DNA of 64,000 nucleotides from Escherichia phage BP32, in sequence record OR906198.1. One strand, 5' to 3'. This document shows, piece after piece, positions 1,387 through 24,108 of the stretch (positions are counted from its first letter, which is position 1; each line of letters opens with the position of its first letter). Under the pieces are notes generated by a model. It did no database searches. It was given only the letters and a program-made list of their open reading frames with translations, and was not told where the DNA came from. The position numbers and the translations under genes were made by a program.

Positions 1387-1571
1387 AAGCTTACTTAGAA
1401 ACAATTGTCGTGGCTCAAAAAGAAGGTGGAGATGTTTCTACTTCTGTATCACAAGTCATTCTCGAATTTGTAGATGCATATGCTTATAATAAATTTACAG
1501 AAACATTTGATGCCTATGAAAAAGGACCAAAGTTTGAAATATATCGTACTCTCTTACCACTAGATTACTAA
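1383..1571 (+). CDS. hypothetical small protein (62 aa)
   Basis: ORF with ATGA start/stop overlap with ligase (translational coupling); no recognisable motif. Confidence 0.45.
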   Translation: MKAYLETIVVAQKEGGDVSTSVSQVILEFVDAYAYNKFTETFDAYEKGPKFEIYRTLLPLDY

Positions 1572-1590
1572 AGGCCTTCGGGCCTTTAAT
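1571..1590 (+). terminator. hairpin aaggcc-ttcg-ggcctt followed by T-rich run
   Basis: UUCG-loop stem-loop read directly downstream of the 62-aa ORF. Confidence 0.45.
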
Positions 1591-1592
1591 TT

Positions 1593-1600
1593 TATAAATA
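1593..1600 (+). promoter_or_regulatory. T4-type late promoter TATAAATA upstream of alt
   Basis: Exact TATAAATA about 24 nt upstream of the alt start; alt is late-expressed and packaged in T4. Confidence 0.55.
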
Positions 1601-1623: not shown

Positions 1624-3717
1624 ATGGAACTCATTACAGAATTATTTGACGAAGATACTACTCTTCCGATTACAAACTTAAATCCAAAGAAGAAAATACC
1701 ACAAATTTTTTCAGTTCATGTCGATGACGCAATTGAACAACCAGGCTTTCGTTTATGTACCTATACATCTGGAGGTGATACTAATCGCGATTTAAAAATG
1801 GGCGATAAAATGATGCATATTGTTCCTTTTACATTAACTGCTAAAGGTTCAATTGCTAAATTAAAAGGTCTCGGTCCAAGCCCAATTAATTACATCAATT
1901 CAGTTTTTACTGTTGCAATGCAGACGATGCGCCAGTATAAAATTGATGCCTGCATGCTTCGTATTCTTAAGTCTAAAACTGCTGGTCAAGCTCGACAAAT
2001 TCAAGTTATTGCTGATAGACTTATCCGTAGTCGTTCAGGTGGCAGATACGTCCTTCTTAAGGAACTCTGGGATTATGATAAAAAGTATGCATATATTCTT
2101 ATACATCGCAAAAATGTATCACTAGAAGACATTCCAGGAGTTCCGGAAATTAGTACCGAGCTCTTTACTAAAGTTGAATCGAAGGTCGGCGATGTTTATA
2201 TCAATAAAGATACCGGAGCTCAAGTAACTAAAAATGAGGCAATTGCAGCATCTATTGCACAAGAAAATGATAAACGTTCTGACCAAGCTGTTATTGTTAA
2301 AGTTAAAATTTCCCGTAGAGCAATTGCACAAAGCCAGTCATTGGAATCTTCTAGATTTGAAAGCGAATTATTCCAGAAGTATGAATCTACTGCAGCTAAT
2401 TTCAATAAACCTGCTACAGCTCCTTTAATTCCCGAAGCAGAAGAAATGAAGCTTGGAATTAATTCATTAGCTTCTAAAACTAAGGCAGCAAAAATTATTG
2501 CCGAAGGAACCGCAGATGAACTTCACTATGACTATAAATTCTTTTCAAAAAGTGAGGTTAATGAAGTTTCTGAAAAAATTAAAGATGTAATTCTTAATGC
2601 GATTAAAAATGAACCAACTACTTCAATAAAATGTTTAGAGAAATACGCAGCAGCTGTTAATAAATTCTTTGAAGAATATAAAGATAATTGGCTTGATAAA
2701 CATAATAAAACCCGTAAAGGACAGCCAGATGAAGTCTGGGAAGAAATAACTAAAAATTCCTGGAACGCAGCAAAAACTAAATTCCTCAAACGAATGATTT
2801 ATAGCTTTTCTGGAATTGGTGCAGGTCCAATGATTGATATTACTATTGCCCGTGATGGTTCTAAATATACCCCATCGCAAAAGCGCGGCATTAGAGAGTA
2901 TTGTGGATCAGGATATACTGACATCAATAATCTTCTTTTAGGCCGCTACAATCCAGAACGATATGATGTAATGAGTGAAAAAGAAATTGAATCTGCGATA
3001 AATAATTTAGATTCAGCCTTTGAAAATGGTGACCGTATACCAGAAGGCATTACAGTTTATCGTGCTCAAAGTATGACTGCTCCTATATACGAAGCACTAG
3101 TTAAAAATAAAGTGTTCTATTTCAGAAATTTTGTATCTACTTCTTTAACTCCTATCATTTTTGGACGTTTTGGAATTACACATGCTGGTATCGGTCTTTT
3201 AGAACCAGAAGCTCGTAATGAATTAACAGTTGATAAAAATGAAGAAGGAATAACTATTAATCCAAACGAAATAAGAGCGTATAAAGAAAATCCTGAATAC
3301 GTTAAAGTTCAAATAGGATGGGCAATTGATGGAGCTCATAAAGTTAATGTTGTATATCCAGGAAGTCTCGGAATAGCAACTGAAGCTGAAGTTATTCTAC
3401 CGCGCGGATTGATGGTCAAAGTTAATAAAATAACTGATGCTTCTAATAATGACGGAACAACAACTAATAATACAAAACTCATTCAAGCTGAAGTTATGAC
3501 TACGGAAGAACTCACCGAATCAGTAATTTATGATGGTGACCGTCTAATGGAAACTGGTGAAGTAGTTGCAATGACAGGTGATATTGAAATAGAAGACAGA
3601 GTTGACTTTGCATCATTTGTTTCATCAAATGTTAAACAAAAAGTAGAATCATCTCTTGGAATTATTGCGTCTTGCATAGATATTACAAACATGCCTTACA
3701 AGTTCGTTCAAGGATAA
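1624..3717 (+). CDS. alt: Alt ADP-ribosyltransferase (capsid-packaged, injected)
   Basis: N-terminus MELITELFDEDTTLPITNL matches T4 Alt as recalled; ART motifs YRAQ (Arg), FVSTSL (STS), EAEVILPRG (ExE); RBS GAGAGGA favours the second ATG (1624). Confidence 0.85.
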   Translation: MELITELFDEDTTLPITNLNPKKKIPQIFSVHVDDAIEQPGFRLCTYTSGGDTNRDLKMGDKMMHIVPFTLTAKGSIAKLKGLGPSPINYINSVFTVAMQTMRQYKIDACMLRILKSKTAGQARQIQVIADRLIRSRSGGRYVLLKELWDYDKKYAYILIHRKNVSLEDIPGVPEISTELFTKVESKVGDVYINKDTGAQVTKNEAIAASIAQENDKRSDQAVIVKVKISRRAIAQSQSLESSRFESELFQKYESTAANFNKPATAPLIPEAEEMKLGINSLASKTKAAKIIAEGTADELHYDYKFFSKSEVNEVSEKIKDVILNAIKNEPTTSIKCLEKYAAAVNKFFEEYKDNWLDKHNKTRKGQPDEVWEEITKNSWNAAKTKFLKRMIYSFSGIGAGPMIDITIARDGSKYTPSQKRGIREYCGSGYTDINNLLLGRYNPERYDVMSEKEIESAINNLDSAFENGDRIPEGITVYRAQSMTAPIYEALVKNKVFYFRNFVSTSLTPIIFGRFGITHAGIGLLEPEARNELTVDKNEEGITINPNEIRAYKENPEYVKVQIGWAIDGAHKVNVVYPGSLGIATEAEVILPRGLMVKVNKITDASNNDGTTTNNTKLIQAEVMTTEELTESVIYDGDRLMETGEVVAMTGDIEIEDRVDFASFVSSNVKQKVESSLGIIASCIDITNMPYKFVQG

Positions 3718-3720
3718 ATC

Positions 3721-5778
3721 ATGGAACTTATTACAGAATTATTTGACGGCGCTTCGGCGCCGGTTGTTAACTTAAATCCTAAGCATAAAATACCTCAAAT
3801 TTTTGCTATTCAAGCCGGTGAAGAAAGCGTGCTTCCTGGATTTAGATTTTGTACATACACCTCTGGCGGTGATACAAATAAAAACGTTAAGCCAGGCGAT
3901 AAAATGATGCATATCGTAATGATAGGCGTTAATGAGAAACTATCATTAGTTAAACTTAAAAACTTGGGTGGAAATCCAATTGGTGTCATTAATGCGGTTT
4001 TTGATACTGCTCTTCAAACAATGAAGCAGTATAAAATTGACGCATGTCTATTCCGCGTACTAAAGAGTAAAACAAACGGTGCAGGTCGGCAAATGCAAGT
4101 TATTGCCGACCGTTTAGTACGTACTAAAGGAGCAGGTCGATATGTTCTTTTAAAAGAAATCTGGGACTATGATAAAAAATATGCATATATTATGGTTTAC
4201 CGTAAAAATGCCAATTTAGAAGACATTCCAGGTGTACCTCCTATTTCAACTGAGTTATTCACAAAAGTTGAATCAAAGGTTGGTGATGTTTATGTAGACG
4301 TTAAAACAGGTAATGCTGTTCCTAAAGCTGTCGCTGTTGCTGCTTCTATTGCTTTAGAAAATGATAAGCGCACGGATCAAGCTGTTATTCAGAAAACTAA
4401 AATTAGTCGTCGATTAGCAGCTCAAGCTCAATATTCTACTGTCGATGCTTCACTTCAGGGTGATAGCTTCGCTGCTAAGAAATATCAAGAGTTTGAATCT
4501 AAAGTTCCGGTATATAAAGCAGAAGGACCAATGAACTCTGGCGTTATTCAGGTTGGTTCAAACTTCAGCAAAGGAGCTATCGGTGGTATGAGAAGTGCTT
4601 CTCGTTTTAAATCTAGTGATTATGAACTCGAAAGCTTCCGAAATCATATTGCATTGGCTCATGCACGTTTACGTGATCCATCTATCAAGTTACAGAGCGA
4701 TATAACATATCAAGGTTCTCAAGAATATTTAAAGAATAAAGAATTTTTTGATTATAAAACTGATAAAATTTTAAGCGATCTTGCTGACATTAATATTTCT
4801 AATAGCTTTGATGTTATTAAGAAAATTGTCAATGATTTAGTTAAAGGTTCTAAAGCCACACCAGATGAAAAGGTAGCTATTGTTCAATTTGTCATGAATG
4901 GCGTTTATAAATTGATTAATGAGTCTGCTTCTCAAGCGTATGAATATGCAAGTACTGAAGTAACTCCAAAAGGATTAACTCAGGCTGAGTCTGATGTAAT
5001 TGAAGATTATTGTGCAGATTCATATGTTGAAATGAACTCGTTCCTTTTAGGTAAACCGGATTCTACCCGTGAAGAATATATGGAACGAGCTATTAAACAC
5101 ATCGAGACAATGGATTCTGCCTTTGCCAAAGGGTCAGTTCTTCCTCCAGGAACTACGCTTTACCGTGGCCAAGAAGTTACCTTTAAAACTTTACGTCATA
5201 ATATTGAAAATAAAATGTTCTATTTCAAGAACTTCGTATCCACATCACTTAAACCAAATATCTTCGGTGAGTATGGTAAAAACTATATGGCCCTAGATGA
5301 TTCCAGTGCAGTATTTTCTGGTGAAGGAGAAGGTTCAGTTGATGCTGAAGATTTAATGCATATGGGTAGTCATTCTGCATATGCTAATGAAGATGCTGAA
5401 ACTAGCGTGGGTATGGTAATTAAAGGAGCTGAGCGAATCAAAGTTATCGTTCCAGGTCATTTATCAGGATTTCCATCAGAAGCTGAAGTTATTTTACCGC
5501 GTGGAATTTTGCTGAAGATTAATAAAGTGAGTACGTACATGATGAAAGAAACTGCTTATAACAAGTATCTAATAGAAGGCACAATCGTTCCTCCTTCTGA
5601 ACAATTAGAAGAATCGGTATATGACGGCGACCATCTAATGGAAACTGGTGAAGTTCGTCCAATGGCTGGATTTAATCAATTCCTTGTAGAAGAATCAAAA
5701 GAAGAGGAAAACGAAGTTTCTCAAATCTTGGCTTCTTTGGTTAACATCAACGGAATGTCTAAAAAGTTCAAAATGTAG
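3721..5778 (+). CDS. second Alt-family ADP-ribosyltransferase paralog (685 aa)
   Basis: Conserved N-terminus MELITELFDG...KIPQIF...PGFRFCTYTSGGDTN...GDKMMHIV; ART motifs YRGQ, FVSTSL, EAEVILPRG; central region diverges from copy 1. Confidence 0.8.
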   Translation: MELITELFDGASAPVVNLNPKHKIPQIFAIQAGEESVLPGFRFCTYTSGGDTNKNVKPGDKMMHIVMIGVNEKLSLVKLKNLGGNPIGVINAVFDTALQTMKQYKIDACLFRVLKSKTNGAGRQMQVIADRLVRTKGAGRYVLLKEIWDYDKKYAYIMVYRKNANLEDIPGVPPISTELFTKVESKVGDVYVDVKTGNAVPKAVAVAASIALENDKRTDQAVIQKTKISRRLAAQAQYSTVDASLQGDSFAAKKYQEFESKVPVYKAEGPMNSGVIQVGSNFSKGAIGGMRSASRFKSSDYELESFRNHIALAHARLRDPSIKLQSDITYQGSQEYLKNKEFFDYKTDKILSDLADINISNSFDVIKKIVNDLVKGSKATPDEKVAIVQFVMNGVYKLINESASQAYEYASTEVTPKGLTQAESDVIEDYCADSYVEMNSFLLGKPDSTREEYMERAIKHIETMDSAFAKGSVLPPGTTLYRGQEVTFKTLRHNIENKMFYFKNFVSTSLKPNIFGEYGKNYMALDDSSAVFSGEGEGSVDAEDLMHMGSHSAYANEDAETSVGMVIKGAERIKVIVPGHLSGFPSEAEVILPRGILLKINKVSTYMMKETAYNKYLIEGTIVPPSEQLEESVYDGDHLMETGEVRPMAGFNQFLVEESKEEENEVSQILASLVNINGMSKKFKM

Positions 5779-5838
5779 TTTACAAGTCCCTCGTGTTGTG
5801 TTATAATAATCTTACTGACATAACATGAGGAACACAAA

Positions 5839-6129
5839 ATGAAATCTTCTTTACGCTTTTTAGGTCAAGAACTCGTAGTTGAAGGCGTTATTCCTGCTGA
5901 TAACGCTTTTAATGAAGCAGTTTATGATGAATTTATCAAAATTTTTGGAACAGATAAAAAGTTCGGAATTTTTCCTTCTGAAAATTTTTCAAAGCCAGAA
6001 CAGACTGAAAGCATTTTCCAAGGTGTAGTAACAGGTAAATTTGAGTCAGAAGCTCCGGTAAAAATTGAAGTTTATATTGAAGACAGTTTAGTTGCTTCAG
6101 TTGCTGCTTTTATTTCATTCCGTAAATAA
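5839..6129 (+). CDS. hypothetical protein (96 aa)
   Basis: ORF with upstream RBS GAGGAA; convergent with gene 54. Confidence 0.5.
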   Translation: MKSSLRFLGQELVVEGVIPADNAFNEAVYDEFIKIFGTDKKFGIFPSENFSKPEQTESIFQGVVTGKFESEAPVKIEVYIEDSLVASVAAFISFRK

Positions 6130-6133
6130 AAAC

Positions 6134-6155
6134 ATGGGGACCGAAAGGTCCCCAT
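6134..6155. terminator. bidirectional hairpin terminator atggggacc-gaaa-ggtccccat
   Basis: Perfect 9-bp stem with GNRA loop between convergent genes. Confidence 0.55.
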
Positions 6156-6157
6156 TG

Positions 6158-7123
6158 TTATATTGCTCCTAATATTTTACTTTGCGAGTTGACAATTCCC
6201 GTCATAGTATTAATGTTTGAAATGCTTCCTGCAGTTCCTCCTAATCTACTAAGTCGTGAAAGCGAATTAGATAGTCCAGTAACACCTCCACTATTTCCGA
6301 GAACGCTTTGAATGCCATTTATAGCAGCAGATTCAAGCCATTCAAGCGCAGCTTGTCTATCAACTGCTCCAGCCTGCATGACTCTATACGCAAAAGTAAC
6401 ATCAAATGTAGTTATTTGGTTATCTCCATCATATGATAACTCAGGAGCGCTCACTGACACTGGAATGCATCCGGTGAACATCACAGCAGTATGAGGTAAT
6501 CCATTACGAGCATGAAGATTAACCTGAATGTCTGCCTCGACATCTTGTGGCAAAGCACGCAGTCCAGTTACTGGGTCTTGAACAGCGTTAACCCAGTCTT
6601 GCATCGCACGATAATTACATGCTTCTGAATCCATTCTAAATGAAATAACCAAAGGGTCTAATTCTCTCCCAGTTATACGAACATTAGGAGAATTATAGTT
6701 CCAGTCAGTTTCATAGGATAATCTATTCTCTGGCATTTTTACAGAATATATCATCAATCCAGATGAGTTATATGCCATGTTAAAGAAGTCAATTAAATAT
6801 GTACCAACTGTAAATGAGCCTAATAAACTTTGAACTGTACGTTGACTCATGGCACCAATAAGATATTTACTAACTCCTGATTTTCTTATCAGTTTTTGTG
6901 TGCCAGCAGTAATTAGCGTGGTAATTCCCTGATTAATATCGCCTTGAGTCAATCCTAACCAATCTGAATTTAAACCCAAGTTATTATAAGAAAAGTTGCT
7001 AATTGAACTTATCAACGAAGAGCTTTTAGTTGATGGAGTTGTCGCAAAAACGCAGCTAAACATATTATTACGTTGGAAATCTGCGTTTATTGCTTGATTA
7101 TTAAATTCCTCTAAAGAATACAT
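6158..7123 (-). CDS. 54: baseplate tail tube initiator gp54
   Basis: 321 aa; position and length match T4 gp54 in the 29-48-54-alt synteny. Confidence 0.85.
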   Translation of the reverse strand: MYSLEEFNNQAINADFQRNNMFSCVFATTPSTKSSSLISSISNFSYNNLGLNSDWLGLTQGDINQGITTLITAGTQKLIRKSGVSKYLIGAMSQRTVQSLLGSFTVGTYLIDFFNMAYNSSGLMIYSVKMPENRLSYETDWNYNSPNVRITGRELDPLVISFRMDSEACNYRAMQDWVNAVQDPVTGLRALPQDVEADIQVNLHARNGLPHTAVMFTGCIPVSVSAPELSYDGDNQITTFDVTFAYRVMQAGAVDRQAALEWLESAAINGIQSVLGNSGGVTGLSNSLSRLSRLGGTAGSISNINTMTGIVNSQSKILGAI

Positions 7124-23469: not shown

Positions 23470-24108
23470 TTATAACGCTTTTTTCATGGCCTCTGCGAGA
23501 GCCATATAGGCGTCATCGGCACTTGTATCGGCTTCCGCCGTCTGTGATTCGGTAATTTCCTTAGGAGTTACCCATGCATCTGGAGCACTTGGACCCCATA
23601 CTGCATCAACACCTACAGTTAATTTGAATCCTTCGTTTACGATACGATAACCTTTATTTGTGTCAGTCAATGAACCTAATCCACGAGAAGAAACTCCTGG
23701 AATCCATCCGGCACGAATATTAGCTGCTAATTTATCTCCAGGACCGTGGTCACCTTCAATAACACGAGCTCGTCCGTATACGTCATTTCCTTTCCACCAC
23801 ATATCTTCTATAATGATAGCGGCTTGCATCGGGTCAACATTAGCGCGTGGAGGATGATTTAATTCTCCGAGAGCTTGTTTAGTTAAAACTTGCTCATTAA
23901 TATAGTCTTTTACCGCTTTTTCTAATATGCGTTTTGGATAAAGACGTTTATTTCTATTGACGACTTCTGCTTGCATGAATATTCCTTCGATGTATAAACC
24001 AGGTTTTAAACCTAAGTCTTTTCCATCGTGGGATTCAAGCATTGGCACACCATCAATAATTTCGCCAGGTTGACCCCAAGTTTCAATTAGTAATTGGGGT
24101 TCATTCAT
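23470..24108 (-). CDS. 21: prohead core protease gp21
   Basis: 212 aa, same as T4 gp21; synteny. Confidence 0.85.
   Translation of the reverse strand: MNEPQLLIETWGQPGEIIDGVPMLESHDGKDLGLKPGLYIEGIFMQAEVVNRNKRLYPKRILEKAVKDYINEQVLTKQALGELNHPPRANVDPMQAAIIIEDMWWKGNDVYGRARVIEGDHGPGDKLAANIRAGWIPGVSSRGLGSLTDTNKGYRIVNEGFKLTVGVDAVWGPSAPDAWVTPKEITESQTAEADTSADDAYMALAEAMKKAL

Follow-up and report, generated by a model that had tools for sequence, protein, structure and literature searches.

The locus analyzed here raises the question of why a T-even phage should carry two genes for Alt-type ADP-ribosyltransferases (ARTs) side by side, and whether the second is a working enzyme with a task of its own. It lies in a 64,000-nucleotide (nt) stretch of Escherichia phage BP32 (sequence record OR906198.1), hereafter the window, whose positions serve as coordinates throughout and which extends from the DNA ligase gene through baseplate, head (gp20-gp24: portal, scaffold, capsid) and tail sheath genes. 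Two intact genes on the + strand, alt (open reading frame 1, ORF1; 1624-3717, 697 amino acids) and alt2 (ORF2; 3721-5778, 685 amino acids), sit 3 nt apart between the ligase gene and gene 54, and their coordinates were confirmed as given in a first-pass annotation of this DNA. ORF1 is a type-A Alt with the T2/T6-type allele, while ORF2 is a type-B Alt, named Alt2 in the BASEL records and the positional orthologue of altb in phage JS98. That annotation had also treated the second copy as unusual, a view that does not survive comparison with other genomes: the pair is the majority state in Tequatrovirus, occurs in T2 and T6, and was already annotated as Alt2 or altb. T-even phages carry it as a matter of course, so that its presence here is nothing new. 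Taken as a whole, the evidence is in our judgment likely to be best explained by a standard T-even alt-alt2 operon whose two proteins are both injected effectors, built with modular cassettes and probably acting on different substrates.

The two proteins align over their full length with 41% identity (BLASTP, E 2e-158), distributed very unevenly: the N-domain (residues 1-235) reaches 68%, the C-terminal tail 46% and the ART domain 35%, and the middle (residues 236-415) falls to 12%. These figures bear out the earlier description of conserved ends around a divergent middle, which we attribute to modular construction, but not the statement that the first 60 residues are nearly identical, as identity over the first 60 columns is 62% and only the first 9 residues are the same. 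Family membership is clear for both genes, with 128.7 bits for ORF1 and 73.3 bits for ORF2 against Pfam PF03496 (ADPrib_exo_Tox; cut-off 23.4); ORF2 is further matched over its full length by PHROG 802 (E 2.6e-255), precomputed annotation assigns the Tevenvirinae_ADPRT domain PF26846 to its cluster and homologues, and it occupies the Alt-family locus, that is, gene 30/alt.1 to alt.-3/gene 54 with a late promoter. The ART motifs are kept in both proteins, as had been reported, and consist of R480, S505-T-S507 and E587-A-E589 in ORF1 and of R482, S507-T-S509 and E587-A-E589 in ORF2. An alignment of 21 diverse family members revealed no catalytic loss, with R482, S507, S509, E587 and E589 invariant. 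In alt2, on the + strand, the codon of catalytic Arg482 (LYRGQ) is at 5164-5166, those of S507-T508-S509 at 5239-5247, and the ARTT loop with E587-A-E589 (F584-P-S-E-A-E) at 5470-5487.

Both proteins are predicted to share a four-part architecture. In Alt, residues 1-6 would form the N-propeptide, 7-236 the N-domain, 237-412 the middle module, 413-632 the ART domain and 633-697 the C-propeptide; in Alt2, a predicted N-propeptide (residues 1-6; 3721-3738, +) is followed by the N-domain (7-235; 3739-4425, +), the middle module (236-415; 4426-4965, +), the ART domain (416-631; 4966-5613, +) and a predicted C-propeptide (632-685; 5614-5775, +). The AlphaFold2 model of ORF2 (pLDDT 77, pTM 0.69) shows an alpha/beta N-domain at residues 12-215, a helical middle at 220-415 and an ART domain at 420-629, for which Vis, CDTa, C3bot and VIP2 are the best PDB matches (Foldseek E 1e-6 to 1e-4, target TM 0.6). 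No match at E <= 0.01 was obtained in a PDB sequence search with ORF2, and no solved Alt structure is therefore available. In the C3/VIP2-like toxin class, an ARTT motif of the E-x-E form goes with specificity for arginine; ORF2, with its ART fold and an ARTT loop that ends in E-A-E, has the R-S-E features of this class.

Selection on alt2 speaks for a functional gene. In pairwise comparisons with PP01, UFV-AREG1 and RB32, alt2 has a ratio of nonsynonymous to synonymous substitution rates (dN/dS) of 0.025-0.057, in the same range as alt with 0.033-0.065; the alt2 values, low in every region of the gene, indicate strong purifying selection. The possibility that Alt2 is a decaying or catalytically dead copy could draw on the loss of alt2 in T4 and on three protein clusters (P0005, P0008 and P0010) that look truncated, but the frame is intact in the window, T2, T6, PP01, RB32, UFV-AREG1 and fD1, dN/dS is 0.03-0.06, all catalytic residues are invariant, and a cluster with 772 members matches ORF2 at 98% identity, so that we find this possibility hardly credible. 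A pseudogene shows a broken frame or relaxed selection and alt2 shows neither; this candidate explanation was rejected on the dN/dS values, the intact frame and the invariant catalytic residues.

The pair is also widespread. The window region is 97-98% identical to many Tequatrovirus genomes, where RefSeq names both genes 'Alt-like RNA polymerase ADP-ribosyltransferase'. The segment of alt2 that is deleted in T4 is present at 90-99% identity in 401 records, of roughly 500 for Tequatrovirus (our counts of phage-collection records include GenBank/RefSeq duplicates), while the contiguous T4-type deletion junction was found in 91 records, many of which are T4 laboratory stocks. T2 and T6 both carry the pair, with an Alt 98.6-99.1% identical to ORF1 and a second gene 97.4-97.5% identical to ORF2. 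Direct orthologues of ORF2, equal in length (685 amino acids) and position, with 97-99% protein identity and no difference of substance, are Alt2 of the BASEL phages (bas40_0032, for example), T2 EcT2_00208, T6 EcT6_00197, RB32 'alt.-2' and fD1 g200. Traces of the second gene in earlier annotation are numerous: the RB32 record (2006) reads 'apparent insertion in alt.-2; similar to alt', the JS98 record (Dhakavirus, EF469154, 2007) lists alta and altb in the same synteny, UFV-AREG1 labels the genes alt_2 and alt_1, and the BASEL records (2021) name them 'ADP-ribosyltransferase Alt' and 'ADP-ribosyltransferase Alt2'. Alt paralogues adjoining alt in several T4-like phages were in fact noted by Nolan et al. 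in 2006 (PMC1524935). Our literature search on JS98 alta/altb returned only unrelated papers. That Alt2 has received so little notice is due mainly to T4, the model phage, in which most of alt2 is deleted.

What T4 retains of the gene can be read directly from its DNA. In the T4 record, alt.-1 and alt.-2, which occupy the slot downstream of alt, are put down to an old duplication that copied the beginning of alt; they are instead the remnant of ORF2, a truncation of a full-length paralogue and not a partial duplication. T4 DNA matches the window at 3388-4068 and then at 5759-6173, the alt2 stretch at 4069-5758 (+, 1.69 kb) being deleted with a 9-nt microhomology, CTAAA(A/G)AGT, at the junction. 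In addition, T4 has lost one A from an A5 run at 3880-3884 (+), a frameshift that separates alt.-1 from alt.-2. These fragments correspond to ORF2 codons 1-~58 and 62-116, and the C-terminus of alt.-2, SLQVPRVVL (9 codons), is read from DNA just after the ORF2 stop. Two unnamed families, PHROG 23015 (matching residues 1-56) and PHROG 15247 (matching residues 62-117), agree in length with T4 alt.-1 and alt.-2, and from this correspondence we take them as the alt.-1 and alt.-2 families; their matches to ORF2 (E 2e-40 and 3e-38) are stronger than those to ORF1 (1e-21 and 2e-19). The T4 remnant differs from ORF2 by 2.5 nonsynonymous versus 11.5 synonymous differences, and because the changes fall mainly at synonymous sites the truncation looks recent. 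The T4 annotation of alt.-1 and alt.-2 should accordingly read as truncation of a full-length gene.

Some related forms were seen on the side. Salmonella phage SG1 and VEc20 have the T4-type deletion with the remnant annotated as one ORF rather than two; the frameshift may be absent there, leaving a protein of about 125 amino acids with N-domain sequence only. Cluster P0005 (36 members) is an ORF2 homologue that starts at MMHIV, residue 62, as T4 alt.-2 does, and has a normal C-terminus; it represents either an intermediate that has the frameshift but not the deletion, or an A5 homopolymer misread in sequencing. P0008, starting at residue 158, and P0010, starting at residue 271, are truncated ORF2 gene calls.

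If Alt2 works, the next question is when it is made and where it goes. A T4-type late promoter box, TATAAATA, lies at 1593-1600 (+) just upstream of alt and is the sole + strand copy between 1300 and 6300; in the whole window the box has 23 matches versus 9.9 expected from shuffles, an excess to be expected of a block of late structural genes. The alt gene starts at ATGATG (1621-1626), and translation from the first ATG at 1621 would give 698 amino acids; the second ATG, at 1624, is favoured because of its spacing from the Shine-Dalgarno sequence GAGAGGA (1613-1619, +) and because it agrees with the T4 numbering of the ITE-6 site. A Shine-Dalgarno sequence for alt2, AAGGA (3710-3714, +), is found inside the 3' end of alt, 6 nt before the ATG. 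No terminator was found between alt and alt2, and from this arrangement we infer that alt2 uses the late promoter of alt, so that both genes would be transcribed late from one TATAAATA promoter.

Precedent for the fate of the products comes from T4 Alt, which gp21 cleaves after ITE-6 and LTE-619, as mapped by mass spectrometry (PMC5694885); 63 C-terminal residues are lost to give a 68.2 kDa product (PMC5694885, PMC9026906), and about 40 copies are present per head (PMC5694885, PMC9026906). The mass we computed for T4 Alt residues 7-619, 68.2 kDa, agrees with the published mature mass. The trimming of T4 Alt is thus not confined to the N-terminus, the end that the first-pass annotation had in view. 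The corresponding motifs of ORF2, ITE-6 and LEE-631|SV, line up with those of T4 if a one-residue indel is allowed, and none of the 21 aligned Alt-family sequences departs from E6 or E631. The predicted C-terminal gp21 site of Alt2, Q-L-E-E631|S, for which LTE-619 of T4 is the precedent (PMC5694885), is encoded at 5605-5619 (+); cleavage after ITE-6 would leave L7 as the mature N-terminus, with the peptide LFDGASAPVVNLNPK. In the ORF2 model, confidence is low over longer stretches only at residues 1-11 and 630-685, the predicted propeptides, and the C-terminal propeptides of Alt and Alt2 are both acidic (pI 4.2-4.6). The prohead protease gp21 is itself encoded in the window, at 23470-24108 on the - strand (PF03420 Peptidase_S77, E 1.5e-111).

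As alt2 is intact under selection, has the late promoter of alt and encodes both gp21 motifs, its product is, by analogy with Alt, very probably packaged, trimmed and injected in the same way. The earlier proposal of two ARTs that are both packaged and injected is in this sense supported indirectly, through the gp21 motifs, the shared late promoter, purifying selection and the presence of gp21 in the window. Alt and Alt2 would both enter the prohead core, be trimmed by gp21 after ITE-6 and at L-x-E|S about 55-65 residues from the C-terminus to about 69-70 kDa, leave the head together with the DNA and start work immediately as mono-ADP-ribosyltransferases, the E-x-E form of the ARTT motif suggesting that they are specific for arginine. 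The chain from late co-transcription through packaging, trimming and ejection to ADP-ribosylation is well supported by analogy.

Alternatively, Alt2 might be made late and act in the infected cell, like a late ModA or ModB, or only during head assembly, its termini resembling those of Alt by common ancestry alone. Proteomic evidence of Alt2 packaging was, in fact, not found in the legible pages of the fD1 virion table (PMC8309999), which do not extend to g190-g202; fD1 carries both genes (g201, g200), and the protein list of its virion preparation contains many non-structural proteins too. For an O177 Tequatrovirus, the 'proteomics' paper contains no experimental virion data. It is also true that [LI]-x-E motifs are short and that several occur elsewhere in both proteins. 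Both mapped Alt cleavage positions, however, are conserved in register, with E6 and E631 invariant family-wide, and they coincide with the only parts of the model that are disordered, its two ends; the N-domain follows the genome in its evolution rather than the catalytic type, which is what one would expect if it docks to phage structures; and expression is from a late promoter next to baseplate genes. We therefore consider a role outside the virion quite improbable, and packaging and injection remain the preferred reading of Alt2.

The behaviour of the N-domain emerged from a region-by-region comparison of the window pair with T4 Alt, JS98 alta/altb, a more divergent tandem pair from one contig (P0009/P0018) and single-copy genes of Mosigvirus, Klebsiella and Acinetobacter phages. 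In neighbour-joining (NJ) trees, the middle, ART and C-terminal regions fall into two deep types, with ORF1, T4 Alt, alta and the single Mosigvirus copy in type A and ORF2, P0009 and altb in type B. Identity in the ART domain follows type (ORF2-altb 57% versus ORF2-ORF1 35%), whereas identity in the N-domain follows genome, with 68% for ORF1-ORF2 and 65% for alta-altb but only 45% for ORF1-alta and 46% for ORF2-altb. NJ bootstrap support was 98-100% for grouping the N-domain by genome and 100% for grouping the middle and ART regions by type, each alternative receiving 0%. The middle modules of types A and B have no detectable profile-level homology (hhalign probability 0.8%). These comparisons indicate that the two Alt types are ancient and that the N-domain evolves in concert within each genome.

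Exchange between the copies has left visible products. Two metagenomic contigs (L003 and L004) and the isolates ECML-134, SCS4 and PST (a Yersinia phage) each have just one alt gene, a chimera in which an Alt-type N-terminus is joined to a type-B body, the isolates being counted from single-piece matches only. All the crossovers mapped (in L004, PST, ECML-134 and L003) differ, at codons ~50, ~99, ~154 and ~182, and chimeras with such differing crossover points mean that the type-A catalytic cassette can be lost too. Cassette exchange between phages is equally apparent in alt itself, where 2363-3387 (+) cannot be aligned by megablast to T4 alt, whose counterpart lies at 5780-6764 (-) of the T4 sequence L001, while the flanks are 92-96% identical; the allele of the window, T2 and T6 is found in 320 records and the T4 type, in the minority, in 175. 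ORF1 is the orthologue of T4 Alt (gpAlt, NP_049811), the packaged and injected enzyme that ADP-ribosylates RNA polymerase; it lies at the same locus and is 71-72% identical overall, with a near-identical N-domain (one difference, N20Y, and identity from residue 21 to about 220) and a C-terminal tail 94% identical, but it carries the T2/T6-type cassette, at 33% identity in the middle (11-44% along it) and 65% in the ART domain. ORF2 resembles T4 Alt in its four-part architecture, 67% identical N-domain, R-S-E residues, both gp21 motifs and late operon, and differs from it in being of the other ancient type (12% middle, 33% ART). T4 is thus atypical twice, first in its alt allele, which is the rarer one, and again in having no more than a relic of alt2.

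We propose that a genome-specific N-domain and the C-terminal propeptide, probably serving packaging and delivery, flank an exchangeable middle-plus-ART cassette that would exist in two ancient types, A in Alt and B in Alt2, and that recombination in the conserved flanks would homogenise the N-domains of tandem copies, swap cassettes between phages and at times delete one copy. A different origin is conceivable, in which alt was duplicated independently in Tequatrovirus and Dhakavirus and a type-B cassette was then imported into one copy in each, with no ancient duplication followed by gene conversion. Sharp-edged replacement of a cassette is seen directly between the T4-type and T2/T6-type alt genes, and the Mosigvirus, Klebsiella and Acinetobacter relatives are single-copy. 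This history, however, would have to run through the same two steps twice and each time, in Tequatrovirus as in Dhakavirus, end with A placed before B, and four independent chimeras document recombination between tandem N-domains, which makes homogenisation the simpler route; we regard separate duplications as somewhat unlikely. They would predict the same present-day function and so concern only the origin of the pair.

The fold of the Alt N-domain matches, at TM of about 0.5 in the BFVD viral structure library, the N-termini of large uncharacterised proteins of Ackermannviridae-like phages and of Vibrio and Agrobacterium jumbo phages, some of which are annotated as zeta-toxin or deaminase. 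In an exhaustive HMMER scan of 1.84 billion representatives, the N-domain was found in only 69 clusters, always N-terminal, and those of atypical length that could be typed by Pfam all had ART domains. Because the typeable clusters found by HMMER all carry ART, we do not claim the N-domain as a general delivery module and keep that idea as a lead.

There remains the matter of what the second enzyme modifies. Judging from their sequences, cassettes of type A and type B probably differ in the host substrates that they recognise. In C3-like toxins, the residue at ARTT position -3 contacts the substrate. At this position type B has F or Y and type A has I, P or Q, and together with the non-homologous middle module the different ARTT loop makes different targets plausible. 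A more specific reading, to which we give somewhat less than an even chance, is that the N-domain is a genome-specific head-delivery module kept in step between the tandem copies by recombination while non-homologous cassettes for target recognition plus ART activity are swapped onto it, and that Alt2 is a further effector delivered by injection, directed at a host target different from that of Alt and possibly anti-defence, which T4 has recently lost. If this reading is true, 50 years of T4 work would have passed without Alt2 being seen because T4 lost the gene only recently. That Alt variants can differ in function is already known from T4 Alt, which, unlike Bas37 Alt, rescues growth against Mokosh type I defence (HIDEN-SEQ preprint, 10.1101/2025.11.20.689424); the Bas37 'Alt' (bas37_0033) may be either paralogue, as sister BASEL records put 'Alt' at tag 0032 or 0033.

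Several considerations weigh against the picture of two injected effectors with separate targets. We found no direct evidence that Alt2 is present in virions, cleaved, injected or catalytically active, and our literature search found no paper on Alt2 function. The ARTT-loop difference hints at different targets by analogy with C3 and iota toxins, and the HIDEN-SEQ preprint highlights one Bas37 alt gene only. The trees are simple NJ trees of 11-14 sequences, and the present data fit both gene conversion and independent duplication with cassette import. Moreover, alt2 is largely lost in T4 and about 90 other records, and the type-A body is lost in ECML-134, SCS4 and PST; by these reciprocal losses both genes are dispensable in nature, which fits redundancy as well as niche-specific roles. 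Alt2 could, in other words, be a back-up or dosage copy, injected like Alt and directed at the same host proteins, RNA polymerase alpha included, so that either gene suffices: T4-type phages keep Alt only, ECML-134, SCS4 and PST keep only a chimera with a type-B body, the catalytic motifs and the E-x-E arginine signature are the same, and T4 alt is non-essential (PMC9026906). Mere redundancy sits poorly, however, with the strong purifying selection on both types and their continued separation in no fewer than two genera (Tequatrovirus and Dhakavirus), and with middle modules that lack detectable homology, ART cores only 35% identical and ARTT loops that differ, and we judge it unlikely.

Comparison with known systems places Alt2 within the Alt family. 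In JS98, alta and altb stand in tandem between alt.1 and alt.-3 as the window pair does, and outside the N-domain altb groups with ORF2 and alta with ORF1; the difference lies in the N-domains, which go by genome (alta-altb 65% versus ORF2-altb 46%). ModA and ModB are proteins of about 200 amino acids, expressed early and not packaged, and ORF2 is unlike them in its 685 amino acids, N-domain, middle module, propeptide motifs and late promoter. Alt, ModA and ModB have been assigned to the same R-S-E ART clade (PMC5512222). With C3 exoenzyme, Vis, CDTa, iota and VIP2, ORF2 shares the ART fold and the R / S-T-S / E-x-E active site at 15-20% identity, but these proteins lack the phage N-domain, middle module and propeptides and use other delivery routes. 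The T4 internal proteins IPI-IPIII are likewise packaged in the core, trimmed by gp21 after [LI]-x-E and ejected with DNA (PMC9026906, PMC5694885); they differ in being small, with a 10-residue N-terminal targeting sequence and no C-terminal propeptide.

Among phage enzymes that enter the host along with the DNA, Alt is the textbook case; it was recently linked to Mokosh evasion (10.1101/2025.11.20.689424), and most T-even phages, T2 and T6 included, carry a second conserved, apparently functional enzyme of its type. To what was already annotated, the present analysis adds the apparently recent truncation in T4, the conservation of both predicted gp21 sites in Alt2, the ancient types with their concerted N-domain, and the loss of either copy by recombination.

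The surroundings of the pair complete the description of the locus. Upstream, the DNA ligase gene (13-1386) is followed by alt.1 (1383-1571, 62 amino acids), which lies between ligase and alt and belongs by its match (E 2e-29) with PF24647, a Pfam family of recent date named 'Phage blade protein'. The alt.1 stop is followed by a hairpin that precedes the alt late promoter, a terminator-like structure at 1569-1588 (+) with an 8-bp stem, 4 GC pairs and a T-rich tail. Directly 3' of the alt2 stop, at 5779-5807 (+), is a strong sigma-70-like promoter (TTTACA-17-TATAAT with TG, 11/12) for alt.-3 (DUF5498, 96 amino acids; 5839-6129, +), the downstream neighbour, which lies outside the ART pair. C-terminal extensions of T4 Alt.-3 lead to escape from the CmdTAC ADP-ribosyltransferase defence (PMC11618068). 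A bidirectional terminator hairpin at 6134-6155, the first + strand terminator after the late promoter, separates alt.-3 from gene 54, which is located at 6158-7123 on the - strand.

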